This document shows, one piece after another, positions 9,212 to 24,345 of a stretch of 64,000 bases of DNA. Positions within the stretch are counted from its first letter, which is position 1, and each line of letters starts with the position of its first letter. This DNA comes from Paludibacteraceae bacterium (GTDB lineage: Bacteria; Bacteroidota; Bacteroidia; Bacteroidales; Paludibacteraceae): the NCBI GenBank assembly GCA_017525455.1, contig JAFXSS010000152.1, forward strand, positions 649 to 64,648. The letters are read 5' to 3'. Made by a program: the position numbers and the translations under genes. The notes beneath the pieces were generated by a model. That model searched no databases, had not been told where the DNA came from, and worked only from the letters and a program-made list of their open reading frames with translations.

Positions 9212-10519
9212 TTAGAATTTATAAACCTTGAACCAGTCAATCGAGGTTACACCCGTAGATTTGACGCCTTGGGGTAAGAACGCAATCACTGTCGGAAAGA
9301 GTTTCGCACCAAGCTTGTTAGCGGTGCGAAGAACCTCCTGATTGTTGACATACCAGGTAATATCGCTCTTGGTGATATCCACAGTGAATATATACTCATG
9401 CCCCTCTTTTACACCTTCAACTACAGTCAGTTCCTCAAACTTATCGAAGGTGACACCCATATTAACTTTGGCTCCATCCCATTGTGCAATACGCAGAATA
9501 GGCAGATGGTTCTCACTAAGCAGGCATATAGCACCGTTAGCCTTGCCCGAGAACGAAGCCTTGACTTGGAACATACCTTCGTCGGCACGGAAATTCTCGG
9601 CAGCTTGAATGACATCACCGGTGTACTCATAGTCCTTCATGATGAAACCTTTCTTCTGCTCCCATGCCGGCACAGTAGCATGTTCAGCCTTGACGGCAAC
9701 TACCAGGCGGCCATCAATCGTGCATACGTTACGACCGTCGTTCATGGCAGCATTCTCATTGGCATACGAGTGGTTGGTCTTGAGTTTTTTGTTACCGAAA
9801 TAGAAACCAGCCTGCCATGGCGAATCCTGCATTCTGTTCCACTGGCACGTATCGGCAAAAATCTCCTGATACGACTCATAACGTGCGATTTGCTTGGGGT
9901 CTTGAGCAAGGAAGAAAGATATGTTCGACGAGTTCTTCAACGCCTCGTACTTACCGTCCTGCTGGCTCTGGAGAGTGGTGTACCAGCGTTTCTCGTTTTT
10001 CCAGAAATGGTTTCTGTCGCGGAACTCTGTATTGTTTACAATCTCGCGCAGGCGATAGTATTCGCTCACTTCAGTCGAGTTCTTATGCACGAGATAACGC
10101 TTAACTGCAAAGGAGTTACCCAAACGCTGCATATGTTTGAGACGCGGATCAGCCTTAACAGCCTCGGGGTCTTTCAACTTGGCAAAATCACTTGTTTCGG
10201 CAAAGTGCATATAGTCCTGCACCTTCTGCAAGCCGCGATAGAATTTGTACCAACGCAAGTGGTGGCTGCGCTTAGCACGATTGTAGGCGGTAATAAGCTG
10301 GTACTCCTCGCGATCCTTGTACCTGGTAGTCAACAATTCTTGCTTGTAGTCCTGGAACTCTTTCGTCTCCACAATCTTTTGGAGGTCAAGGAACTCTGCC
10401 AACTCTTTCGAGTGCTCAACATCGCGGTAGCGGCGGATGTCGGCGCTGACTTGACGGATACGATCTTCCATCTGCTTGGTTGTCAAGGTGTCTGCCTTGA
10501 TTTGCGTAACATGTTTCAT
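9212..10519 (-). CDS. hypothetical protein: helical N-terminal half plus beta-rich C-terminal half (possible concanavalin/GH16-like jelly roll without obvious catalytic residues)
   Basis: 435 aa ORF with 3 and 12 nt gaps to its neighbours. The C-terminus ...SIDWFKVYKF resembles the last strand of ConA-like/GH16 folds. No ExDxxE motif is seen. Confidence 0.55.
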   Translation of the reverse strand: MKHVTQIKADTLTTKQMEDRIRQVSADIRRYRDVEHSKELAEFLDLQKIVETKEFQDYKQELLTTRYKDREEYQLITAYNRAKRSHHLRWYKFYRGLQKVQDYMHFAETSDFAKLKDPEAVKADPRLKHMQRLGNSFAVKRYLVHKNSTEVSEYYRLREIVNNTEFRDRNHFWKNEKRWYTTLQSQQDGKYEALKNSSNISFFLAQDPKQIARYESYQEIFADTCQWNRMQDSPWQAGFYFGNKKLKTNHSYANENAAMNDGRNVCTIDGRLVVAVKAEHATVPAWEQKKGFIMKDYEYTGDVIQAAENFRADEGMFQVKASFSGKANGAICLLSENHLPILRIAQWDGAKVNMGVTFDKFEELTVVEGVKEGHEYIFTVDITKSDITWYVNNQEVLRTANKLGAKLFPTVIAFLPQGVKSTGVTSIDWFKVYKF

Positions 10520-13243: not shown

Positions 13244-13251
13244 CAAAATTA
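13244..13251 (-). promoter_or_regulatory. -7 promoter box (TAatTTTG) upstream of gyrB
   Basis: CAAAATTA on the plus strand with a T-rich spacer. It implies a gyrB leader of roughly 115-120 nt. Confidence 0.45.
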
Positions 13252-13313
13252 CAAAAAAAAAATGACATTTGCAAGTTTTTTGTCATTTTTTTTTCACAGA
13301 TAGCAAAAATATA

Positions 13314-14381
13314 TTATTTTTGTCCGAGTCGGTTGAGGTGGCAGAGCATCAGGCTGCCGTCTTCCCGCCTGAGATGCATGCCGTTGCCTTCGCAGAAGTC
13401 GAAGGCTTTGCAGTCTTTGCACGGCTCCAATTTGCGCATCCAACTGCGGTCGCGATAGGGTTTGAATCCGTTCTCCCAGACCTGCCAGAACGAGTCTTTG
13501 TAAATATTTCCCTGATAGTACTTTCCGCGGATGCTTGTGCAGGCAGATATACTGCCGTCAATCAGTATCGATGCTACGCTTATACCCGCAGCGCACTGAT
13601 ATAGATGGTCGCGGACCTTTCCTTCGTAACTGCCCAGATAGCCTTCGCAGGAGTATGATACATGTCGTCCGGCCTCGCGTTCGGCAACTATGAAATCCAT
13701 CAGTTGCTTGAACTGCTCATCCGTCAGAATCAGTTCGGGGTTATCTGCAGCGCGACCCATGGGAGCGATGCCGAACACGCGCCAATCCCGCACTCCGAGG
13801 TTCCACAGCAACTCGCGGATAGCGGGTATATGATCTATTGTCCGCTGGTTGGCGCAAGTCACAACGTCCCATACCAACCCTTTCTCCGCGGCACAAAGTC
13901 TGATTGCCCTGCATGCGCCTTCGAAGGCCAGCGGGTGCTGGCGAAGCCATACATGATCTTCCTCCAGACCATCCAACGACACGGTGATTGATCGCAGTCC
14001 TGCTTTTCTAAGTTCGCGGAAGCGTGCTTCGGTCAGAGCCAAACCGTTGGTGACCATTCCCCACGGATAACCGCGGTCGTACAATGCCCGGCCTATTTGC
14101 GCCAGATCTTTGCGCATCAGCGGTTCGCCACCTGAGATGATGATAAGCACCTTGTGAGGATCGACATGAGGCGTAACCTCCGTGTCAATCACATGCAGGA
14201 AATCCTCCGCAAGCATATCGGGAGTCTGCACCGACGCTATGCAATCACTGCCGCAGTGCAGACAGTGGACATTGCAACGCAAGGTTGATTCCCAGAACAG
14301 TTGCTGCAGCGGATGCAACTCTTTCAGGTTCCTTCTGCGCCATTGTTCGAGGCGCAGTGCCAATCGTATTCTCAGGTTCAT
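13314..14381 (-). CDS. radical SAM protein with a SPASM/twitch-like Cys-rich C-terminal domain
   Basis: The radical SAM core shows in CNVHCLHC (Cx3Cx2C) and the GGEPLM glycine-rich SAM motif. The C-terminal Cys-rich region reads YSCEG...YQCAAG...ISACTS...EPCKDCKAFDFCEGNG...LCH. The start lies 3 nt after the stop of the upstream membrane protein. Confidence 0.85.
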   Translation of the reverse strand: MNLRIRLALRLEQWRRRNLKELHPLQQLFWESTLRCNVHCLHCGSDCIASVQTPDMLAEDFLHVIDTEVTPHVDPHKVLIIISGGEPLMRKDLAQIGRALYDRGYPWGMVTNGLALTEARFRELRKAGLRSITVSLDGLEEDHVWLRQHPLAFEGACRAIRLCAAEKGLVWDVVTCANQRTIDHIPAIRELLWNLGVRDWRVFGIAPMGRAADNPELILTDEQFKQLMDFIVAEREAGRHVSYSCEGYLGSYEGKVRDHLYQCAAGISVASILIDGSISACTSIRGKYYQGNIYKDSFWQVWENGFKPYRDRSWMRKLEPCKDCKAFDFCEGNGMHLRREDGSLMLCHLNRLGQK

Positions 14382-14384
14382 TGA

Positions 14385-15011
14385 TTAGAATCGTATAGTC
14401 ATTCCTACACCATTACCGGTCATACCGAGCGACATTTCCACATCGGTTTGCGGAGCCTGCGGCTGTTGCGGCATGAGGCATAGTTCGTTGTACGTATCAA
14501 CGCTCTTGCTCATCCGTTTGTAACCGACCGTCAGCAGCGGAACAGAACTGATCAGCGCCGCTCCTGCCAGAAAGCCCAGACCGAGGAATGTGCCGTTCTC
14601 TGCCACGAACTTCGGATCTGCAGGTTTCTCCGAATCAGCAACATCGGAAACCACGACACCTACGCCCGATACCAGCCATCCGATGAATGAGGTAGGTGCA
14701 CTTACCAGTCCGAAACCCAAGAGCACCCAGCCGGAGATCATACATTGCTGACCCTGCTTGTACTGTTGGTAAGCTTGCGGACATTCTTCATGAAGAAACT
14801 TCTTGTACGCCGAACCGTTCATCTGCAAATCGCCGCAGTAGTACTTGCCGCCGTCTTTGATAACCACCGACCGCTTTTGTTCCGGCTGTTGTACCGGTTC
14901 TTGCGATACCGTCTGCTCCTCGGTTGAGTTCAATTGTTGCGCCTGCATCGTTGTGCAGCAAGCCAACAAAAGTAATCCTGACAGCAGGAAAAGTTTTATA
15001 TTGTTTTTCAT
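14385..15011 (-). CDS. putative lipoprotein / two-TM membrane protein translationally coupled to the radical SAM gene
   Basis: MKNNIKLFLLSGLLLLAC lipobox-like signal, a Q-rich linker, a small Cys-containing ectodomain and two hydrophobic helices. The start was moved to the ATG at 15009-15011; the longer track ORF would overlap the serpin stop. Confidence 0.6.
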   Translation of the reverse strand: MKNNIKLFLLSGLLLLACCTTMQAQQLNSTEEQTVSQEPVQQPEQKRSVVIKDGGKYYCGDLQMNGSAYKKFLHEECPQAYQQYKQGQQCMISGWVLLGFGLVSAPTSFIGWLVSGVGVVVSDVADSEKPADPKFVAENGTFLGLGFLAGAALISSVPLLTVGYKRMSKSVDTYNELCLMPQQPQAPQTDVEMSLGMTGNGVGMTIRF

Positions 15012-15067: not shown

Positions 15068-16336
15068 TTACTTCTCCCACGCCGGATGTCCGATGATAGC
15101 GGTGAAGAGAATCGTTCCGTAATCGCGCTCTCGGATGATCAGCACAAACGGCCGGTCTGCGATGAACTTGCGCCGATCCATCGGTTCGAATTCAGCATCT
15201 TTCGTCATACCTATCGTCACCGCTGCCGCTTCCGTGCCTTCTTCGTCGAACTGCATGAAGCAGTATTGCTTAATCAGGTTAACGAAAGTTGGTTGATTGC
15301 TCAGGTGCGAGAAATTTGCTCTGCTGCTGAACGCATCTTCCACTCCTAAGGCTTGCAGGTCGTCGTTCAGTTTGCGTTCGTACTTCAGCGCGAACTTGGG
15401 CAATGCCAGTTCTACCTCCGGTTGGAACATGTTTGCCAGCATCTCCTGCCATTGTTCAGCATCAAGTTCCTGCACCCATCTGCGGATATCTATACCCTCT
15501 GCCGGCAAGATAATATCTGCACAGTACTTACCGCCTTTGTACGGCAGTTCGAGCAACTGGTAATCATCATCCTCACCATACAGCATCTCGGCCGTACGAT
15601 GGAGCATGTTCGTCTGTATCTCATCACCGGCCAAGGTGGTGAACTTTTGAGGCTTGGTCAGTTCTTTCTTGAACTTATCCTGCCATTTTGCCTTGAAATA
15701 CAGGGCGTTGACCAGCGCCATTACAGTCTCGTCACTCACCATATCGCGAGTGATGATTTTCTTGATGAGATTGTTGGTATGCTGCGCTGCGAAGCGGTTG
15801 ATATCGTCAAGAACTTTCTGATCCGCGAAGGTCGGCACGTTCTTAGCCTCGGCATCGAAACTCCTTTTGCAAGCCTCTGTGTACTCAAGGAATATCGGGA
15901 ATCGCTCTGCCACCCATATACCATTAGCCAGTTTGACGTTTGTGTACTGATCCAATGCCGGCAAGACATCAATCAGTTGGCGATAGTACGCGTTGATCTC
16001 CGTTATCGGAGCATCGTCGTCAAACCCGAGCATCTCCCGAATCTGTTCGAGCGTCTCGCCGTCTGCACCATTCATCAGCATACCGAGCAGCATAGAGGCG
16101 GAAAGCGGCGAGAGGATAATATTCTCCTGCTGTTCGTCGGCCGCAGCCTGCGCCATCAAGTCGAAACTGAAATCGTTGCAGCCTTGCACCATTTCCTGCT
16201 CACTATAGGAGAACTGCAAGCGCTTGGGCTGCGAAACGCCGTTACCCGAACAGGACACAAACATGATCAAGCAAAACAGAATGGCGCACAATCCGAGCAC
16301 CACTCCACTGAACAGGATATTTCTCATTGTGTTCAT
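15068..16336 (-). CDS. serpin family lipoprotein (inhibitory-type hinge)
   Basis: The C-terminus reads EEGTEAAAVT (hinge) ...FIADRPFVLIIRE...ILFTAIIGHP (serpin signature). The N-terminal signal ends in a lipobox, FVSC. The start is ATG 16336 or 16327. Confidence 0.85.
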   Translation of the reverse strand: MNTMRNILFSGVVLGLCAILFCLIMFVSCSGNGVSQPKRLQFSYSEQEMVQGCNDFSFDLMAQAAADEQQENIILSPLSASMLLGMLMNGADGETLEQIREMLGFDDDAPITEINAYYRQLIDVLPALDQYTNVKLANGIWVAERFPIFLEYTEACKRSFDAEAKNVPTFADQKVLDDINRFAAQHTNNLIKKIITRDMVSDETVMALVNALYFKAKWQDKFKKELTKPQKFTTLAGDEIQTNMLHRTAEMLYGEDDDYQLLELPYKGGKYCADIILPAEGIDIRRWVQELDAEQWQEMLANMFQPEVELALPKFALKYERKLNDDLQALGVEDAFSSRANFSHLSNQPTFVNLIKQYCFMQFDEEGTEAAAVTIGMTKDAEFEPMDRRKFIADRPFVLIIRERDYGTILFTAIIGHPAWEK

Positions 16337-16435: not shown

Positions 16436-17266
16436 TTACTGAGGAGTATGATACGAGAACCAGTTAGTAGTACGACTCTTCCCGGCGAACAGGCATGCAC
16501 ACCATTCGGTTGGTTCAGCGGGGTAGTCAACAGTTACCATACAACTACCCGGGCAGTGGTCCCCCATATTTGCTTCGCCACTAATGCATTTAGCAAACAA
16601 ATCTTCTGCATAACGTTCAATGCTTGTGTTTAACCGTTGGAGTTCGGCCGACGGACAACTGCAATAGAACAAATAATCTACTGCGAGGCTTGGAGATATT
16701 GATAGCTTGTCTGGTGACTTGTTTTTGTTAGGATTAAAGAATATTTTCACATCATTCATTATCTTTCCTTCTGCCGTTTTGAACGTGCAGACTGAAATCT
16801 TATCAGCATGGTAGTTATCGTCCGGATAGTATGCAAATGCCACATATTCTGTTTCTGGTGCGAGCGCATCCCATTCCGGCTCGCGAGATGTGCCCTTATA
16901 CAGAAAGTCTTCAATCTTTTCGGGTTCTTCCCATGGCTCTTCTCCGGGTTCCAATGGCTCCTCGTCATCACCATCATACGGATAGCCTTGATATATGTAA
17001 CGCAAATCAAATTCCCACTGGTGGTAATAGTATTCTCCGATAGTGTCTTTGAGTTCGGCAAAACGTTCGCAGGTCAAAACGTCCCAATAATAATACTTGT
17101 CGGCATACGCAGGTTCGACAGTGATGCTGACTTGCCGGTCTTGGATATTACTTACGGTAATACTAAAATCGGCATCTTTCACATTTTGTCTCGAGTTGCA
17201 ACCGGTTGTTAGGGTAACCAGTACGCTCGCTCCTATAGCAAGCAATATATATAAGATTCTTTTCAT
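16436..17266 (-). CDS. hypothetical lipoprotein (276 aa, acidic/aromatic-rich, Cys-rich C-terminal half)
   Basis: MKRILYILLAIGASVLVTLTTGC lipobox; no recognised domain. Confidence 0.6.
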   Translation of the reverse strand: MKRILYILLAIGASVLVTLTTGCNSRQNVKDADFSITVSNIQDRQVSITVEPAYADKYYYWDVLTCERFAELKDTIGEYYYHQWEFDLRYIYQGYPYDGDDEEPLEPGEEPWEEPEKIEDFLYKGTSREPEWDALAPETEYVAFAYYPDDNYHADKISVCTFKTAEGKIMNDVKIFFNPNKNKSPDKLSISPSLAVDYLFYCSCPSAELQRLNTSIERYAEDLFAKCISGEANMGDHCPGSCMVTVDYPAEPTEWCACLFAGKSRTTNWFSYHTPQ

Positions 17267-17284
17267 GATAATTGTTGACTATTT

Positions 17285-17503
17285 TCATAGTTCACTATCT
17301 TCAGCAGCTTCGCTTTCCGGCGTCTGTTCCCATTGCGCAGGGCGCACGCCGTACAGTGCTATGACATGCGGATCGTCAATAATGATCGGTTCCACGCCAT
17401 AATCCGTTGCGAACTGTTCGCAACTCGTCAGCGTTGTTCCTGCCAATCCGACAATCACAGCCCCGAGCGCAGCGTTGATGCGTTTCAATACTTTCTTGCG
17501 CAT
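17285..17503 (-). CDS. mini-lipoprotein (72 aa) with two YGVxP motifs and an acidic tail
   Basis: MRKKVLKRINAALGAVIVGLAGTTLTSC | EQFATDYGVEPIIIDDPHVIALYGVRPAQWEQTPESEAAEDSEL. It starts 1 nt after the upstream stop. Paralogous to 21560-21760. Confidence 0.6.
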   Translation of the reverse strand: MRKKVLKRINAALGAVIVGLAGTTLTSCEQFATDYGVEPIIIDDPHVIALYGVRPAQWEQTPESEAAEDSEL

Positions 17504-17504
17504 G

Positions 17505-17906
17505 TTATTCAGTTTTATTTTTTATCATGACAAATACGATTTCGTCTGCCGGGAAGGCACAATCCTTTTCCGGCACGAATCCGGTACCGCATTCAAACAT
17601 ATATCTGGGTGAGATAGACTGTTTCTGATATGCTCCTTTCTGATCAATCGCCGTTACGGTTACATGCGGAATAGGATAGGGCACGTCCTTTATTCGCGAA
17701 TAGAAATAGCCATTTTCGTCGGTACTGACGACGCTCGGGAAACGTACGCCTTCTACTGTTATTTCAATTGCTATACCTTGCAAAAACTCTTCATTCTCAT
17801 TCTGCACAGTGCCATACGTGCTAATGCTAGTCGTATGCATGTGCTTGCAGCCGACCAATACGCTCATTCCTATCATGAGCAGTATAAGTGATATGTATTT
17901 CTTCAT
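17505..17906 (-). CDS. lipoprotein, diverged carboxypeptidase-regulatory-like (CarboxypepD_reg) fold
   Basis: MKKYISLILLMIGMSVLVGC lipobox. ...STYGTVQNENEEFLQGIAIEITVEG...DENGYFY matches the G-x-V-x-D/N...P-L-x-G-[IV] pattern of the neighbouring paralogs. Confidence 0.6.
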   Translation of the reverse strand: MKKYISLILLMIGMSVLVGCKHMHTTSISTYGTVQNENEEFLQGIAIEITVEGVRFPSVVSTDENGYFYSRIKDVPYPIPHVTVTAIDQKGAYQKQSISPRYMFECGTGFVPEKDCAFPADEIVFVMIKNKTE

Positions 17907-17973: not shown

Positions 17974-18411
17974 TTACTTCTTCTTCAGTTGAAAATCCTG
18001 ATGTACATAGCCGGCACCTTGATTCCAATTATCGCCCCATGCCACTTTGCTGCGATCGTAATCCACTTTTACACTCACGGAGTCCGATGCATATACGCCT
18101 GTCGTGTCGGTCACAATAATATCCAAGGAATCCGCAGGGAAGAGACCGTATGGGCCGACTTTATATGTTCCGTCATCGGCGGTATAAACATCGGACATAG
18201 TTCCGCGGTAATCGAGATTCGGACGATACCTGTCTTTGAACGTAACCCGTATGTTCTCTAACGGTTTGTTCTCCTCGTTGGTTATTGTACCTGTCGCCTC
18301 AAACGTCGCGTGAGGCGTTCCGTATTCGCAACGGAAACATCCATTAAGCCCTAATATGCCTAGCAGCAAAGCAATCAACGCATTGATGCCGGTTAACACT
18401 TTCCTTTTCAT
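17974..18411 (-). CDS. lipoprotein with a CarboxypepD_reg-like domain; resembles the family named 'radical SAM-associated putative lipoprotein'
   Basis: MKRKVLTGINALIALLLGILGLNGC FRC EYGTPHATFEATGTITNEENKPLENIRVTF... It is a paralog of 21779-22231. The start was moved to the ATG at 18409-18411, downstream of the promoter box. Confidence 0.7.
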   Translation of the reverse strand: MKRKVLTGINALIALLLGILGLNGCFRCEYGTPHATFEATGTITNEENKPLENIRVTFKDRYRPNLDYRGTMSDVYTADDGTYKVGPYGLFPADSLDIIVTDTTGVYASDSVSVKVDYDRSKVAWGDNWNQGAGYVHQDFQLKKK

Positions 18412-18459
18412 ATCGATGATTTTTTTAGTGGTTATTTGCCATGTTTCGGAAATCGACTG

Positions 18460-18467
18460 CAAAATTA
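18460..18467 (-). promoter_or_regulatory. -7 promoter box (TAatTTTG) of cassette A
   Basis: CAAAATTA on the plus strand, with a -33-like TTTGCATAT 15 nt upstream on the minus strand. Confidence 0.5.
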
Positions 18468-18482
18468 CAACAAATTTCCGAT

Positions 18483-18587
18483 ATATGCAAATAATTTTGT
18501 GGATTTGAATTTTCGCTTAAATGATTGTTTTTCAGCAAAAAGTCATTTCGAGCGTGTGGAAATGTGACAAAATCGGTTATTTAGGGA
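18483..18587 (-). repeat. conserved upstream element, copy A (105 bp)
   Basis: Base-by-base comparison with 22291-22395 gives 2 mismatches in 105 bp (18494 and 18508). It starts 15 nt upstream of the -7 box, the same offset as the other copies. Confidence 0.9.
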
Positions 18588-18602
18588 AGAAATCCGGCAT
18601 GT

Positions 18603-19985
18603 TTATTCCCTCTCTGCGTGCGCCCGTCTGCTCCGCACACACTGCTCTGCCAGGGGGTAATACTTCGTTCCCTCAAACATCCGAAGCATCATTTCGTCTC
18701 TGTCAGCTTCTGTTTGTTCCCGTCTTTCCGGTGCATCGTAGCCCTGTCTGTTTGTCTTTTCAGACCAACTATATATTACTTCCCCTTTCAGATTGATATA
18801 CTTATATACATTCAGTCGGGGATTCTCAGTGTCAACAACCAAGCATAACTCGTTGTGTACGCCGGAACTAATGAGGCTTGCGGGCATCTTATCCCATGTG
18901 TCCATTGACAGCACCACTTCCCCTTGCAGGTTGATTATACAATATAAGTTTACATCTACTTCAGTGGATTTGATGCTCATCGTGGTTGATTTCCATACCC
19001 ATGCATACTCTCCATAAAACGGGTCTGCGTATGCGTATTGATAGGGGATCTGCACTATGCCGTTCTTGTCGATATAGCCATATAATCCTTGGTTGTTACG
19101 CACCGGCATAAGGCCTCCGTCGCCGAAGAAGTTTTCTCCTCCAAGATATATGTTCTGTTCGGTTATTATGTTTCCTTGCGTATCCATTAGTCCGGCGTAC
19201 GTCCAATCACTATCCTTCAATTTATAGAGCAACCTGTCATTTCCAACCGACTGCAAATATGGGTATATGGTGTCTATCACCAATTCGCCCTTGGTGTTGA
19301 TTGCACCGTAGACGTAATAACTTTGTGATTCGTCGGACCAACTTTTGTCAACTACCGCTATGCCGTCGCAGAAATCATACAACTTCCAGTATCTTTCTCC
19401 ATCTACGCCGTTGATATAACTGGAGATTGCTATTTCTCCTTTTTTGTTGTAGTACCCGAAGATGGATGCTGCCAATCCGTCTTTTGTCATCGGTCCTAAT
19501 GGCGTAATGAGGCCATTATCCATAGGCGCAAGAATGGTGCTGAAATGATTGTCCATTATGCCGGTTTTGCGCATGTCGCCGTATCTGCAGCAACCGTAGT
19601 AAAAGTAATGGTCCAAGAATCCCTGACCTTCCGGAAGGGTGTAAACGACTTCACCTTTCTTGTTGATGAATGCGTGTTGGGGGCCAAGGGTGGGCACTTG
19701 GTATCCGGTGCTACGTAAAGGCTCACCGTCAACATCAATATACACCTGAGCCACGCCACCCGAGAATCCGTACGTCCGGTCATATTTCGCAGGAATGACC
19801 ATTTCGCCTTTTTCGTTGATGAAGCCCCAGTAACCCGTGCTGTCTGCCGCCGGCCACAGCATGGTGGTATCTTCTTCCGGAGTCTGCGAGAAAGGTTCGT
19901 TACAGCCGGTCAGTATTCCTGCCAATCCGACAATCACTGCCCCGAGCGCAGCGTTGATGCGTTTGAGAATTCGTTTTTTCATCAT
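18603..19985 (-). CDS. WG (KWG-type) repeat-containing lipoprotein
   Basis: MMKKRILKRINAALGAVIVGLAGILTGC lipobox. It has at least 7 repeats of the YGFI[ND]xKGExVIP type (YWGFINEKGEMVIP, YGYIDKNGIVQIP, YKYINLKGEVIY ...). Its start overlaps the upstream stop (ATGATGA). Confidence 0.8.
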   Translation of the reverse strand: MMKKRILKRINAALGAVIVGLAGILTGCNEPFSQTPEEDTTMLWPAADSTGYWGFINEKGEMVIPAKYDRTYGFSGGVAQVYIDVDGEPLRSTGYQVPTLGPQHAFINKKGEVVYTLPEGQGFLDHYFYYGCCRYGDMRKTGIMDNHFSTILAPMDNGLITPLGPMTKDGLAASIFGYYNKKGEIAISSYINGVDGERYWKLYDFCDGIAVVDKSWSDESQSYYVYGAINTKGELVIDTIYPYLQSVGNDRLLYKLKDSDWTYAGLMDTQGNIITEQNIYLGGENFFGDGGLMPVRNNQGLYGYIDKNGIVQIPYQYAYADPFYGEYAWVWKSTTMSIKSTEVDVNLYCIINLQGEVVLSMDTWDKMPASLISSGVHNELCLVVDTENPRLNVYKYINLKGEVIYSWSEKTNRQGYDAPERREQTEADRDEMMLRMFEGTKYYPLAEQCVRSRRAHAERE

Positions 19986-21559: not shown

Positions 21560-21760
21560 TCATTGTTCGCAATCCTCAACACTCTCCCAAGTGGTAGGTG
21601 TCACGCCATACATCGGTTTCAATCCCGGGTCATCCAGATCCCCCTGATATATCGGCGGTACGCCATACTCAACCGTACACCCCGTAAGAGCAGACCCGGT
21701 CAATCCGACAATCATTGCCCCTAGAGCGATGTTGAGATGTTTGAGTAGCGATTTTTTCAT
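21560..21760 (-). CDS. mini-lipoprotein (66 aa) with two YGVxP motifs and an acidic tail
   Basis: MKKSLLKHLNIALGAMIVGLTGSALTGC | TVEYGVPPIYQGDLDDPGLKPMYGVTPTTWESVEDCEQ. Paralog of 17285-17503. Confidence 0.6.
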   Translation of the reverse strand: MKKSLLKHLNIALGAMIVGLTGSALTGCTVEYGVPPIYQGDLDDPGLKPMYGVTPTTWESVEDCEQ

Positions 21761-21778: not shown

Positions 21779-22231
21779 TTAATCATTATCGGCTTTTTTG
21801 CCAAGCACAAAGTCCTGTTGCACTTCGGCCTTACCGCAATTCCAGTGATCCTGCTTCGATACGCCGCTACGGTCGAACTCCAGTCCTCCTACATTGACCG
21901 AATCGGATTCATATACGCCAGCGGTGTCGCGAACGATGATTTCAAACGAGTCTCTCCAAGGATGGGTTTGGGTTCGCCACGCATATTGTCCATCCGAATT
22001 GGTAGAGCAAACGACATAGCCTAAAGAGCCATTCTCTCTATCCCATCTGTCTCTAACAGCCACTTGGATATTCTCCAACGGTTGCTCCTGCTCATCGGTT
22101 ACGGTACCGGACATTTCAAACGTTGCATACGGCGAGCCATACTCGCTATAACCTATGTGGCAACTGACACCCAGCAACCCCATCAGCGTCGCTATCAGGG
22201 CATTGATACCTGCCAAAATACTCTTTTTCAT
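21779..22231 (-). CDS. lipoprotein with a CarboxypepD_reg-like domain (paralog of 17974-18411)
   Basis: MKKSILAGINALIATLMGLLGVSC HIGYS EYGSPYATFEMSGTVTDEQEQPLENIQVAV... The start was moved to the ATG at 22229-22231. Confidence 0.7.
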   Translation of the reverse strand: MKKSILAGINALIATLMGLLGVSCHIGYSEYGSPYATFEMSGTVTDEQEQPLENIQVAVRDRWDRENGSLGYVVCSTNSDGQYAWRTQTHPWRDSFEIIVRDTAGVYESDSVNVGGLEFDRSGVSKQDHWNCGKAEVQQDFVLGKKADND

Positions 22232-22267
22232 ACTTGTAAATGTTAAGTTGTTTTTAAATTGCGAGTG

Positions 22268-22275
22268 CAAAGGTA
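22268..22275 (-). promoter_or_regulatory. -7 promoter box (TAccTTTG) of cassette B
   Basis: CAAAGGTA on the plus strand, with a -33-like TTTGCATAT 15 nt upstream. Confidence 0.55.
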
Positions 22276-22290
22276 CAACAATTATTTCAA

Positions 22291-22395
22291 ATATGCAAAT
22301 ATTTTTGTGGATTTGTATTTTCGCTTAAATGATTGTTTTTCAGCAAAAAGTCATTTCGAGCGTGTGGAAATGTGACAAAATCGGTTATTTAGGGA
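22291..22395 (-). repeat. conserved upstream element, copy B (105 bp)
   Basis: Near-identical to 18483-18587 (2 mismatches). Confidence 0.9.
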
Positions 22396-22657
22396 CCAAA
22401 TTGTCATCCCAATTCACCTCCGAGGCATTGCTGTTTTGCGTGCTGTGCGCATCTTGGTTGTCAATAATTCGCAAGGCATTGGGATCCGGACGTCCTCCTC
22501 CGTTGCCTTTTGGGTTATCACCTTTTCCGCTTGGAGGATTCATGTCATTTTTACCAGCCATACAGCTCACCATAACTACCATCACGGCGCTAAGAAATGC
22601 AACCTTACACAAGCGGAAGGCTATATGGTCAAACTTGATAGTATCTGATTGTGCCAT
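22385..22657 (-). CDS. small G/P/N-rich lipoprotein (90 aa)
   Basis: ...AFLSAVMVVMVSC lipobox, then a low-complexity stretch GKNDMNPPSGKGDNPKGNGGGRPDPN. Its stop codon (TAA, 22385-22387) lies inside repeat copy B. Confidence 0.45.
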   Translation of the reverse strand: MAQSDTIKFDHIAFRLCKVAFLSAVMVVMVSCMAGKNDMNPPSGKGDNPKGNGGGRPDPNALRIIDNQDAHSTQNSNASEVNWDDNLVPK

Positions 22658-22725: not shown

Positions 22726-24198
22726 TCAATTCAGTTCCCCCGTCATCAGCCTGATCATTTGCTGCTTCAGTTCACGGGAGTTCGTGCCGAGTTTGTTAGC
22801 CGTGTGCTGCTTGAAGTTACGTATACCGCTCTGTCCGTAATGCAGCAGTGCCGCCAGTTGCTTGCTGTCGAAGCAATCCATCATCACCAGCACGCAGAGC
22901 CTGAGTTCTTTGTCCGTCAGGTCACCTTTGGCTTTCAGTTTGTCAGCCAGCATGAAGAACTGCCTGTTCACGACAGCGCAAAACTGCTCATAATCTTTCC
23001 AGCACAACGTCTGCTTCCAGTCGTCGGCACGCAGCAGCGTTTCGATGTTCTTCGCCACCTCTTGCTCTATTTTCACCCGTCGGTCGTCAAACTGCTGCTG
23101 CAGTTGGGCATTCTGCTTCTGGCGTGCATGTATGAACGCCTGCGCCCGTTGTTTCTCGTGCGCAATCTCAGCCATCGAACGCTGGTGCTGCCTGCGGATG
23201 TTATACCACCACGCGAGCAACGCCACTATCAGACAAAGCACTCCCGCCAGCAGCAATCCCCATCTGCGCGGCGGTGTATTCATATCCTGCTCCAGCAGTT
23301 CGACCGCATGCGACAGGTCTCCCTGGTCATTGGCAATCACACGCAGCACCGCAGCACGTTCTGCCGCCGCCGCGCGCACATCCTCGAGTTGAGCCGTGCT
23401 GTCCTGCTGGGTAAGTATGTACAATGCATTGGCTCGCAGGAAAAGATGATCGGTAGCCTGCAGCACCTGACGGGCATAATATGTAGCCGAGTCATACTGA
23501 ACCAGATACGAATAACATTGCCCCTTGATCATCATCAGCGACGGCGCTGCCGCCTGCTCGCCTTCAACCATATTCGCATACTGCAAGCCACGGGTGTAAT
23601 CACCTGCACGCATATATGCTTCAGCATAAGTCTCGTAGCACATGGCCAACAACAGTGAATCTGTTACCGATTGAATGACAGGCTCCAGCAATGCCCGCAC
23701 ACCGGCCGTATCGCTCTGCTCAGCCAGGGCGTAGGCCATATTGGTCAGACCAATGCGGTAACGCATAGAGTCACCGGCCTGCAAAAACGCCTGCGTCGAG
23801 CGCTCGTACATAGTGCAGGCCAATGAGTAGTTACTCTCCATTCGGCAGATATAAGCGATATTGCTGTACACGCGTCCAAGCAACTCCTGATCATTCGTGC
23901 GTGCAGCACGCGCGTATAATAGATAAGGCATAGCCTCGGAGTAACTCCTATTGATGCGCAACAGCCGTCCGTAGAAGAAACAGGCCTTGGCGTAAGACGT
24001 AGGCATCAATACGCGCCAAGGCGACAATGCATGCACAGCCTGATGCAAAGCCTCGGCATCGTCAAACACCTGGTCAGCCTGCAGCAAACTGTCGGCCTGA
24101 GCAACCGTGGCGCGAGCCTCATGCACCGAACGGCACGAAGTCATGGCAAACGCAAAAGCGCAGAGCAAAAGCAATACTATGTACAGGCGTTTTTTCAT
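22726..24198 (-). CDS. one-component transmembrane regulator: signal/lipobox, TPR-like ectodomain, single TM, coiled coil, C-terminal LuxR-like HTH
   Basis: MKKRLYIVLLLLCAFAFAMTSC signal. TPR-like repeats follow (YSEAMPYLLYA, YSLACTMYERS, YAEAYMRAGDY ...). The TM segment is WGLLLAGVLCLIVALLAWW. The C-terminus reads LTDKELRLCVLVMMDCFDSKQLAALLHYGQSGIRNFKQHTANKLG. The start was moved to the ATG at 24196-24198, downstream of the promoter box. Confidence 0.7.
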   Translation of the reverse strand: MKKRLYIVLLLLCAFAFAMTSCRSVHEARATVAQADSLLQADQVFDDAEALHQAVHALSPWRVLMPTSYAKACFFYGRLLRINRSYSEAMPYLLYARAARTNDQELLGRVYSNIAYICRMESNYSLACTMYERSTQAFLQAGDSMRYRIGLTNMAYALAEQSDTAGVRALLEPVIQSVTDSLLLAMCYETYAEAYMRAGDYTRGLQYANMVEGEQAAAPSLMMIKGQCYSYLVQYDSATYYARQVLQATDHLFLRANALYILTQQDSTAQLEDVRAAAAERAAVLRVIANDQGDLSHAVELLEQDMNTPPRRWGLLLAGVLCLIVALLAWWYNIRRQHQRSMAEIAHEKQRAQAFIHARQKQNAQLQQQFDDRRVKIEQEVAKNIETLLRADDWKQTLCWKDYEQFCAVVNRQFFMLADKLKAKGDLTDKELRLCVLVMMDCFDSKQLAALLHYGQSGIRNFKQHTANKLGTNSRELKQQMIRLMTGELN

Positions 24199-24229
24199 CC
24201 GCGGCAAACACAAGTAAAAATCGAGACTG

Positions 24230-24237
24230 CAAAGATA
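24230..24237 (-). promoter_or_regulatory. -7 promoter box (TAtcTTTG) of the regulator gene
   Basis: CAAAGATA on the plus strand, with -33-like TTTGCATAT at the same 15 nt offset as in cassettes A and B. Confidence 0.55.
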
Positions 24238-24252
24238 CGAAAAAAAAATGAT

Positions 24253-24345
24253 ATATGCAAATTTTTTTGTGGAAATTTCACTTTGCATAAACTGCTGTTT
24301 ATCAGCGCAAAAAGCATTCCTGCCTGTGGAAAAGTGATTTTACCT
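24253..24345 (-). repeat. conserved upstream element, diverged copy C
   Basis: It aligns to copies A and B with many substitutions and one 2 nt indel. It keeps ATATGCAAAT, TTTTGTGGA, TCAGC..AAAAAG and TGTGGAAA.GTGA, and the two TGTGG cores are 57 bp apart as in copy B. Confidence 0.6.

Follow-up and report, generated by a model that had tools for sequence, protein, structure and literature searches.

A Radical SAM/SPASM Enzyme of Paludibacteraceae and Its Lipoprotein Partners with a Tyr-Gly Motif: Candidate Substrates and a Possible Splicease-Like Reaction

Introduction

Spliceases are radical S-adenosylmethionine (rSAM) enzymes with a SPASM domain that act at XYG motifs, which are often repeated; their binary systems without an RRE protein use a leader helix, and the published enzymes span several phylogenetic types (PMC11414181). 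The presence of YG-rich neighbours beside rSAM-SPASM genes has become a successful mining criterion, which gave 27 confirmed pairs in 189 genera (PMC10849128). Native and engineered splice sites read, for example, PIRP-L-YG-LPI and AVAA-x-YG-VVFP (PMC10533398), and the ketoamide products of splicing inhibit proteases (PMC11626197). Here, we consider a radical SAM/SPASM gene and the lipoprotein genes accompanying it in a stretch of 64,000 nucleotides (nt) of DNA from a Paludibacteraceae bacterium (GenBank assembly GCA_017525455.1, contig JAFXSS010000152.1, positions 649 to 64,648 of the forward strand). This whole stretch is called the window below, and positions are counted from its first letter. 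Scott et al. 2022 (Chem 8:2659) reportedly screened the neighbours of rSAM-SPASM genes for YG richness and predicted 939 splicease systems; the enzyme family discussed here, TIGR04133, may already be on their list.

The closest catalogued system is the pair of NCBIfam families TIGR04133 (rSAM_w_lipo) and TIGR04134 (lipo_with_rSAM), both modelled as "hypothetical equivalogs" for which a chemistry has yet to be described. Public records give these family names to homologues of the window's genes, and the two genes are adjacent in relatives. Among host-associated Bacteroidales this enzyme family is very common, yet it is annotated just as an "rSAM/lipoprotein system"; its size exceeds 6,500 clusters of 90% identity at E ≤ 1e-20. 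In a search of the literature no mention of TIGR04133 was found, TIGR04134 turned up only in a review about the type IX secretion of Cytophaga hutchinsonii, and spliceotides were not linked with lipoproteins.

The Enzyme and Its Conserved Genomic Partner

The original prediction, made from the letters of the window, described a radical SAM/SPASM enzyme coupled to a membrane lipoprotein encoded 3 nt upstream and proposed as its substrates five other lipoproteins sharing the motif YG[TSV]P after the lipobox Cys. The enzyme gene and the genes of its partners in the window are as follows:

13314–14381, minus strand: radical SAM/SPASM enzyme of 355 amino acids (aa), TIGR04133, recognised by NCBIfam, Pfam and Cys motifs; last gene of the operon starting at T134A
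17285–17503, minus strand: pep72, YG lipopeptide precursor of 72 aa, lipobox Cys28, two YG motifs
17974–18411, minus strand: T134A, TIGR04134 lipoprotein of 145 aa, 89.7 bits; first gene of the operon ending with the enzyme
21560–21760, minus strand: pep66, YG lipopeptide precursor of 66 aa, Cys28, two YG motifs
21779–22231, minus strand: T134B, TIGR04134 lipoprotein, 92.7 bits; first gene of a second cassette (18.6–22.2 kb)

Comparison of related loci has shown that the conserved genomic partner of the enzyme is a lipoprotein precursor with the motif [E/K/L/M]-Tyr-Gly-x-Pro (a YG lipoprotein) a few residues after the lipobox Cys. Two sets of loci were used. Clade 1 consists of 80 loci from species-representative GTDB genomes, taken out of 531 enzyme matches overall, whose enzymes are 78–93% identical to that of the window; 76 or 78 of these loci are counted, depending on the analysis. 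Clade 2 consists of 80 metagenome loci, 71 of them usable, with enzymes 55–83% identical to the query P0129, whose own identity to the window enzyme is 52%. The nearest public relatives are metagenome-assembled genomes of rumen and gut Paludibacteraceae/Bacteroidales.

The YG lipoprotein precursor was the only conserved neighbour family in clade 1: it occurs in 59 of 78 loci and has 85 members, of which 82 lie upstream of the enzyme gene on its strand. Across this clade the remaining flanking genes differ, a serpin gene being present in three loci and gyrB in five. An open reading frame (ORF) of a YG lipoprotein ending no more than 150 nt from the start of the enzyme gene, upstream and on the same strand, was found in 53 of 76 loci, often with an overlap of 4 nt. 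In clade 2, a TIGR04134-like lipoprotein gene is adjacent upstream in 50 of 71 loci and immediately downstream in about 11 more, and its motif reads [E/M]-Y-G-x-P, 8–17 residues after the Cys. When lipoprotein-like ORFs were inspected for YG no more than 45 residues away from the lipobox Cys, it was present in 53/69 (clade 1) and 50/53 (clade 2) of those directly upstream of the enzyme and in 40/573 and 11/185, respectively, of those on the opposite strand. Both clades show a large effect, though the kinship of the loci inflates the P values, and those of about 1e-37 overstate the independence of the data. Co-occurrence across genomes, which had been set beforehand as a test of the substrate proposal, is thus strong in both clades, and the YG lipoproteins stand as by far the best substrate candidates.

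Two forms of the partner may be distinguished. Proteins of the TIGR04134 type carry a single site just before a β-sandwich, and peptides of 60–110 aa, including pep72 and pep66, carry from one to five sites in a Pro/Val/Glu-rich, otherwise unconserved sequence. These short multi-YG lipopeptides are the commonest partner in the window's lineage and form a class that is unclassified by both NCBIfam and Pfam, no model of either matching them. The original prediction missed their dominance, as well as the fact that X-Tyr-Gly is the published recognition motif of spliceases. In the window the partners are T134A, T134B, pep72 and pep66, with T134A and pep72 sharing the operon of the enzyme; short multi-YG lipopeptides homologous to pep72 are encoded beside the enzyme in most related loci, and homologues of pep66 adjoin it in the loci L004, L015, L020, L025 and L030. 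A protein search with T134B returned just eight close relatives.

The enzyme matches TIGR04133 at 522.1 bits against a cutoff of 425, its residues 3–352 being aligned with positions 1–349 of the 350 in the model, and both T134A and T134B are well above the TIGR04134 cutoff of 39.8 bits. The pairing of these families named in the original prediction was therefore right. Pfam finds in the enzyme the domains Radical_SAM (PF04055, 58.4 bits) and SPASM (PF13186, 31.6 bits, residues 263–325). The protein contains the motif CNVHCLHC (CX3CX2C) and seven C-terminal Cys; the three radical SAM Cys and six Cys of the SPASM region are conserved at 90% or more among 79 homologues, and the seventh at majority level. 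The SPASM pattern is CX2CX5C with one Cys elsewhere, compared with the canonical CX2CX5CX3C. Judged by these matches, the predicted protein is a member of the radical SAM superfamily with a SPASM domain, as had been proposed, and a full member of TIGR04133 above its curated cutoff. It belongs to no family with a known non-protein substrate, a possibility raised in advance against the substrate proposal. It is a compact SPASM protein, and neither an RRE domain nor an RRE gene was seen in it or its neighbours by Pfam scan and comparison of loci.

A Foldseek search was carried out with an AlphaFold2 model of the homologue P0180, in which the predicted local distance difference test score (pLDDT) of the core is above 90. 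The nearest solved folds are SkfB, SuiB, anSME, CteB and ChlB, a group of peptide- or protein-modifying SPASM enzymes; anSME (4k36) was matched with E 9e-14, and the epimerase EpeE more weakly. A sequence search of the PDB for a solved splicease or a near relative found none, the top match being BlsE (1.6e-14). Second-tier NCBIfam matches were tried as a guide to the chemistry and set aside as uninformative, since AhbD, NirJ, TIGR04053, MftC, TIGR04103 and TIGR03913 score alike.

The Tyr-Gly Motif

The consensus of 101 sites reads [K53 L23 M12 E9]-Y-G-[V68 P13 I9 T6]-[P60]. Tyr is followed by Gly in 86 of 122 cases (70%) in the short lipopeptides against 5.9% in large ORFs (odds ratio 38). In all 60 of 60 cases G-x-P is preceded by Tyr; Phe, Trp and His do not occur there, and the peptides contain almost no Phe or Trp. 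The position after Tyr-Gly is variable and may be occupied by V, P, I, T, S, A, C, M or G. The proposed YG[TSV]P held good as a Tyr-Gly motif after the lipobox Cys, and as judged from these alignments it is better written x-Y-G-x-P, with Tyr invariant and Gly near-invariant.

Four of the five lipoproteins named in the original prediction carry this motif. In T134A (Cys25) it is E-Y30-G-T-P (nt 18313–18327), and in T134B (Cys24) it is E-Y31-G-S-P (nt 22130–22144). The two sites of pep72 are D-Y35-G-V-E-P (nt 17387–17404) and L-Y51-G-V-R-P (nt 17339–17356), and those of pep66 are E-Y32-G-V-P-P (nt 21656–21670) and M-Y51-G-V-T-P (nt 21596–21613). The fifth protein is

17505–17906, minus strand: CarboxypepD_reg-like lipoprotein of 133 aa, weak match to Pfam PF13620

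Its "STYGT", taken earlier for a degenerate form of the motif, was rejected, since the family alignment places its Gly with the invariant Gly of strand 1 and not in the YG column. By sequence this protein is a paralogue of the TIGR04134 fold without the YG motif.

In an AlphaFold2 model of T134B (mean pLDDT 85), a signal helix (residues 3–25) is followed by a disordered segment (23–29) and a β-sandwich from residue 35. The motif (residues 30–34) is thus placed by the model in or beside a flexible tether and right ahead of the first strand of the β-sandwich. The TIGR04134 model resembles, according to Foldseek, a generic prealbumin-like β-sandwich such as those of intradiol dioxygenases or carboxypeptidase regulatory domains, with template modelling scores of 0.4–0.5. 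The metal ligands of the dioxygenases are not retained in the alignment.

Cys is enriched two residues before Tyr (C-x-Y-G), being found there in 11 of 101 sites in clade 1 and in 9 of 39 in clade 2, for example in RCEYGTP and VVCKYGVP; T134A (FRCEYGTP) also has it. This variant is too infrequent for the core chemistry.

Distant Homologues and Limits of the Family

The motif was also found outside the two clades. Upstream of P0161 (36% identical to the window enzyme), an unrelated secreted protein of 249 aa reads ...ATC-YGVY. In P0180, three V-Y-G-x-(A)-T-P repeats are fused to the N-terminus of the enzyme, and in P0197 and P0223 a tail L/I-Y-G-P-P with a zinc ribbon is fused to its C-terminus. 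The best family match of these three fusions is TIGR04133, by a wide margin, and they have no lipoprotein signal. Such fusions are Rosetta-stone evidence that Tyr-Gly motifs are the concern of this clade even apart from lipoproteins.

Other fusions were noticed as well. Nine homologues of about 545 aa (P0169, P0194, P0199, P0204, P0206, P0210, P0232, P0233 and P0258) have a C-terminal JAB/MPN-like domain with the motif H-S/T-H-P...S..D, and P0154, P0174 and P0245 are double radical SAM fusions.

In L083 (1–2501) and L084, a 44%-identical enzyme, which at 457 bits still passes the TIGR04133 cutoff, is flanked by several Cys/Asp-rich peptides of 37–79 aa (e.g., ...CSCDSDCRRDCSCDSECYCDSDYC...) and a second SPASM enzyme. 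By its sequences this looks like a different system of peptides made on ribosomes and modified after translation (RiPPs), misnamed by the TIGR04133 cutoff. The cutoff therefore lets in at least one enzyme whose partners are of another class.

Possible Chemistry of the Modification

In our opinion, the YG precursors are probably the substrates of the enzyme, with the Tyr-Gly dipeptide as the site of modification. As to the reaction itself, a splicease-like excision of tyramine at Tyr may tentatively be proposed by analogy, its chance being put somewhat below even. It is proposed because, to our knowledge, tyramine excision by spliceases is the sole described radical SAM/SPASM reaction keyed to X-Tyr-Gly, and the sites are alike. 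The enzyme would cut a tyramine equivalent (C8H9NO, −135.07 Da) from Tyr and rejoin the backbone, so that α-keto-β-Glu, -Lys, -Leu or -Met would be left at the spliced sites. This would yield lipid-anchored proteins and short lipopeptides with 1–5 ketoamide groups in the membrane-proximal tether. Because radical SAM enzymes reside in the cytoplasm and the substrates have Sec/signal peptidase II (SPII) signals, the modification would take place on the unfolded cytoplasmic precursor, ahead of export, lipidation and cleavage of the signal peptide. The signal peptides of the YG precursors are unusually conserved in alignments and may be the recognition element; the conserved sequence R-I/V-N-x-x-L-G ... 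L-x-G-C might act as a recognition helix.

Ketoamides are a pharmacophore inhibiting serine and cysteine proteases, and such products would fit the serpin encoded in the same operon, though the serpin link is local to a sublineage. A wider proposal, rather doubtful and also made by analogy, is that gut and rumen Bacteroidales might run a splicease on Sec/SPII precursors with the signal peptide as the RiPP leader, the ketoamide lipopeptides acting as covalent protease inhibitors at the surface or on vesicles. If tyramine splicing does take place, backbone-rearranged ketoamides would be routine in lipoproteins of major gut and rumen bacteria. One to five α-keto-β-amino acid residues beside the membrane anchor would make these compounds ribosomal β-amino-acid lipoproteins, and the reaction would bear on the resistance of gut and rumen bacteria to host and microbial proteases.

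Several observations weigh against splicing or against the YG lipoproteins as its targets. The second-tier NCBIfam matches AhbD, NirJ, TIGR04053, MftC and TIGR03913 (95–150 bits) are about as good as TIGR04103 (118.1 bits), the nif11-class maturase 3 family, presumably that of PlpX, and the enzyme is far outside the latter, whose cutoff is 725 bits. Tyr-Ala replaces Tyr-Gly in L086 (LYASP, LYAPL), L004 (MYAPP) and L107 (CYAPP), and TIGR04134 proteins mostly have Glu before Tyr, which is no obvious protease P1 residue. Three to four inserted genes part the enzyme from the YG genes in the window, where the nearest TIGR04134 gene lies 3.6 kb upstream in the same operon; in relatives this gene, or that of a short YG lipopeptide, is adjacent. 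The YG tail in the AlphaFold2 model of P0180 is disordered (pLDDT below 50) and no docking was seen, the run being uninformative on docking. Finally, P0132 (44% identical, 457 bits, passing TIGR04133) is situated beside Cys/Asp-rich peptides and a second rSAM gene, not YG lipoproteins, and P0134 lies between CNNM and TilS genes with no YG-lipoprotein neighbour; therefore, the chemistry may vary within the wider clade.

The same substrates could instead undergo a Tyr-centred cross-linking at the same site, which seems unlikely to us. This would be a three-residue cyclophane of the triceptide kind (Tyr ring to the C-β of residue +2, Y-G-V/P/T) or a C–C/C–O bond of the WgkB/SuiB/PqqE type, giving −2 Da per site and stiffening the tether. 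The repetition of an aromatic-x-x motif in short peptides agrees with it, as do the presence of the cross-linkers SuiB, CteB, ChlB and PqqE among the nearest solved folds, the models of WgkB, PapB and DynA among the second-tier matches of homologues, and the enrichment of Cys at position −2. However, the third residue of the motif is variable, the invariant positions being Tyr and Gly, and the aromatic position is never taken by Phe, Trp or His, which cyclophane-forming families usually accept. In addition, the triceptide maturase families (XYE, GRR, FXS) are not among the best NCBIfam matches of the enzyme.

Another single-residue change at Tyr or Gly, such as epimerisation, oxidation or hydroxylation at C-β, methylation or thiolation, following the logic of an anSME-like maturation of an exported protein, is in our view improbable. 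The compact SPASM enzyme, of anSME size and with no RRE domain, the structural matches to anSME and, more weakly, to EpeE, and the export of the substrates by Sec, with a short linear motif near their N-terminus, would be in keeping with it. On the other hand, C/S-x-P-x-R is absent from the partners, the anSME family TIGR03942 is not among the 25 best NCBIfam matches of the enzyme, and no enzyme carrying out such changes is known to be keyed to a Tyr-Gly dipeptide.

It is more improbable still that the lipoproteins are not substrates at all, i.e., that the enzyme acts on a small molecule or cofactor, the YG lipoprotein serving under shared regulation as a carrier, a receptor or an immunity protein, with YGxP as an element of structure or sorting. 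AhbD and NirJ, which are heme enzymes, and BlsE do occur among the second-tier sequence matches, and the motif of TIGR04134 proteins directly abuts the folded domain. However, the motif is repeated 2–5 times in disordered, otherwise unconserved short peptides and is fused to the enzyme in three distant homologues without a lipoprotein signal; the gene pair often overlaps by 4 nt, and cofactor-pathway genes are not conserved among the neighbours in clade 1.

The last candidate is the protein with which the original prediction had coupled the enzyme:

14385–15011, minus strand: protein of 208 aa, N-terminus signal/lipobox-like (LLLAC), two hydrophobic segments, unmatched in Pfam and NCBIfam

That the enzyme works with or on this protein is hardly credible and was rejected in spite of the 3-nt spacing and the Cys-containing ectodomain, since the gene stands beside the enzyme in one of 80 related loci (the closest relative, L001), is absent from the 92%-identical L002, and encodes no YG motif after the signal peptide. 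The features described for it, including the LLLAC sequence, the hydrophobic segments and the three nt (tca) between its TAA stop and the ATG of the enzyme, were all found as predicted; the spacing is a local accident of insertion in this lineage and not a conserved coupling.

Other Genes and Elements of the Window

Every gene from about 8.4 to 24.3 kb is located on the minus strand. Besides those already given, the following features belong to this region:

15068–16336, minus strand: serpin with a lipoprotein-type signal, Pfam Serpin 325 bits, same operon as the enzyme
16436–17266, minus strand: lipoprotein of 276 aa without Pfam or NCBIfam match, same operon, recurring in L002 only
18454–18593, minus strand: 140-nt promoter/5′ region, copy 1, upstream of T134A, 91% identical to the copy at 22262–22401
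18603–19985, minus strand: WG-repeat lipoprotein (Pfam WG_beta_rep) with no YG motif near the N-terminus
22262–22401, minus strand: 140-nt promoter/5′ region, copy 2, upstream of T134B
22726–24288, minus strand: TPR-like protein of 520 aa with an internal hydrophobic segment; about 20 related loci encode relatives of it (25–32% identity) upstream of the cassette

The 140-nt repeat holds a promoter of the Bacteroidetes type (TTTG ... TAatTTTG) about 50 nt before the start of T134A; the consensus of Bacteroides promoters is TTTG / TAnnTTTG. Because this promoter precedes T134A in a series of minus-strand genes, the enzyme is taken to be the last gene of a transcription unit which begins with T134A and has pep72 among its members. 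Boxes similar to this promoter stand before gyrB and before the gene of the 520-aa TPR-like protein, and a related box of 38 nt was noticed at 13244–13281 and 24230–24267. The TPR-like protein may be, from its sequence, a regulator. An Rfam scan of the whole window gave no match.

But for the inserted 208-aa gene, the serpin gene is directly upstream of the enzyme, which it adjoins in L001–L003 only; a functional link with protease inhibition is possible and would be lineage-specific. A protein of 435 aa without a Pfam family (9212–10519, minus strand) is conserved beside a LOG-family gene and gyrB in L001–L003 and L021. A 65-nt repeat (75–100% identity) at 17439–17503, 19918–19982 and 21696–21760 corresponds to the signal-peptide codons of pep72, the WG-repeat lipoprotein and pep66, and it appears that a signal-peptide module has been shuffled or converted between otherwise unrelated genes.

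The surroundings of the enzyme in related loci are diverse. A fixed cassette lies about 1–2.5 kb upstream of it in a subclade comprising L052, L054, L059, L062, L063, L065, L069, L070 and others. The order is a YG peptide, a TPR-like protein related to that at 22726–24288, a secreted protein of 172 aa with the motif GPTGSTPDPTDPNQF and of no family, a CarboxypepD_reg-like lipoprotein without YG, and the enzyme. In L056 (11351–20845) and 20 other clade-1 loci, the gene of a giant protein of about 3,160 aa, absent from the window, is directly downstream of the enzyme. In L003 (2398–3418), a radical SAM activase-like protein of 204 aa (CPLRCKYC) and a zinc-ribbon/transmembrane protein of 133 aa are encoded upstream, replacing the YG lipoprotein.

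Comparison with Known Systems

The SPASM enzymes that cross-link Tyr or other aromatic residues (PqqE, MftC, SuiB, WgkB and the triceptide 3-CyF enzymes) are similar to the window enzyme in that they modify peptides at an aromatic residue in a short motif, and they are among its second-tier matches of sequence and fold. They differ in that none of their cutoffs is reached and the motifs are not the same, the invariant residues here being Tyr-Gly rather than the putative cross-link partner.

Enzymes of the anSME/AtsB/ChuR group are also compact SPASM proteins with no RRE domain and are structural neighbours of the P0180 model. It is known that anSME modifies a short linear motif of unfolded signal-peptide-bearing sulfatases in the cytoplasm before their export, which is the logic also proposed for the YG precursors. 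Its target motif (C/S-x-P-x-R), product (formylglycine) and sequence family all differ from what is found here.

Spliceases (PlpX/PlpA, PcpX, RhaX/RhaA, RcsX, RasX) likewise are radical SAM/SPASM enzymes encoded beside X-Tyr-Gly precursors with one or several sites, and the binary ones have no RRE protein. Their X is commonly Met, Leu or Asp, and the contexts L-YG-LP and x-YG-VV resemble L/M/K-YG-VP here. In related loci, an X-Tyr-Gly precursor gene stands beside a radical SAM/SPASM gene, the arrangement by which spliceotide genes have been recognised (PMC10849128). In contrast to spliceases, the precursors here have SPII signal peptides and not Nif11, NHLP or other leaders, there is no PCAT protease or exporter, and some sites read Tyr-Ala. 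A Sec/lipoprotein signal peptide that serves a splicease-like maturase is put forward here as a hypothesis.

Summarizing these comparisons, it may be concluded that the locus belongs to the TIGR04133/TIGR04134 system, catalogued though uncharacterised, since the enzyme and two lipoproteins pass both cutoffs. It departs from the catalogued pair in that inserted genes separate the two members by 3.6 kb, and pep72, pep66 and the 133-aa paralogue do not match the TIGR04134 model. The findings that are new in relation to the annotation are the Tyr-Gly site, the short multi-YG lipopeptides as the main class of partners and the fusions of the enzyme with the motif. With the probable target pinned to a Tyr-Gly just after the lipid anchor, an annotation placeholder becomes a question for one experiment.

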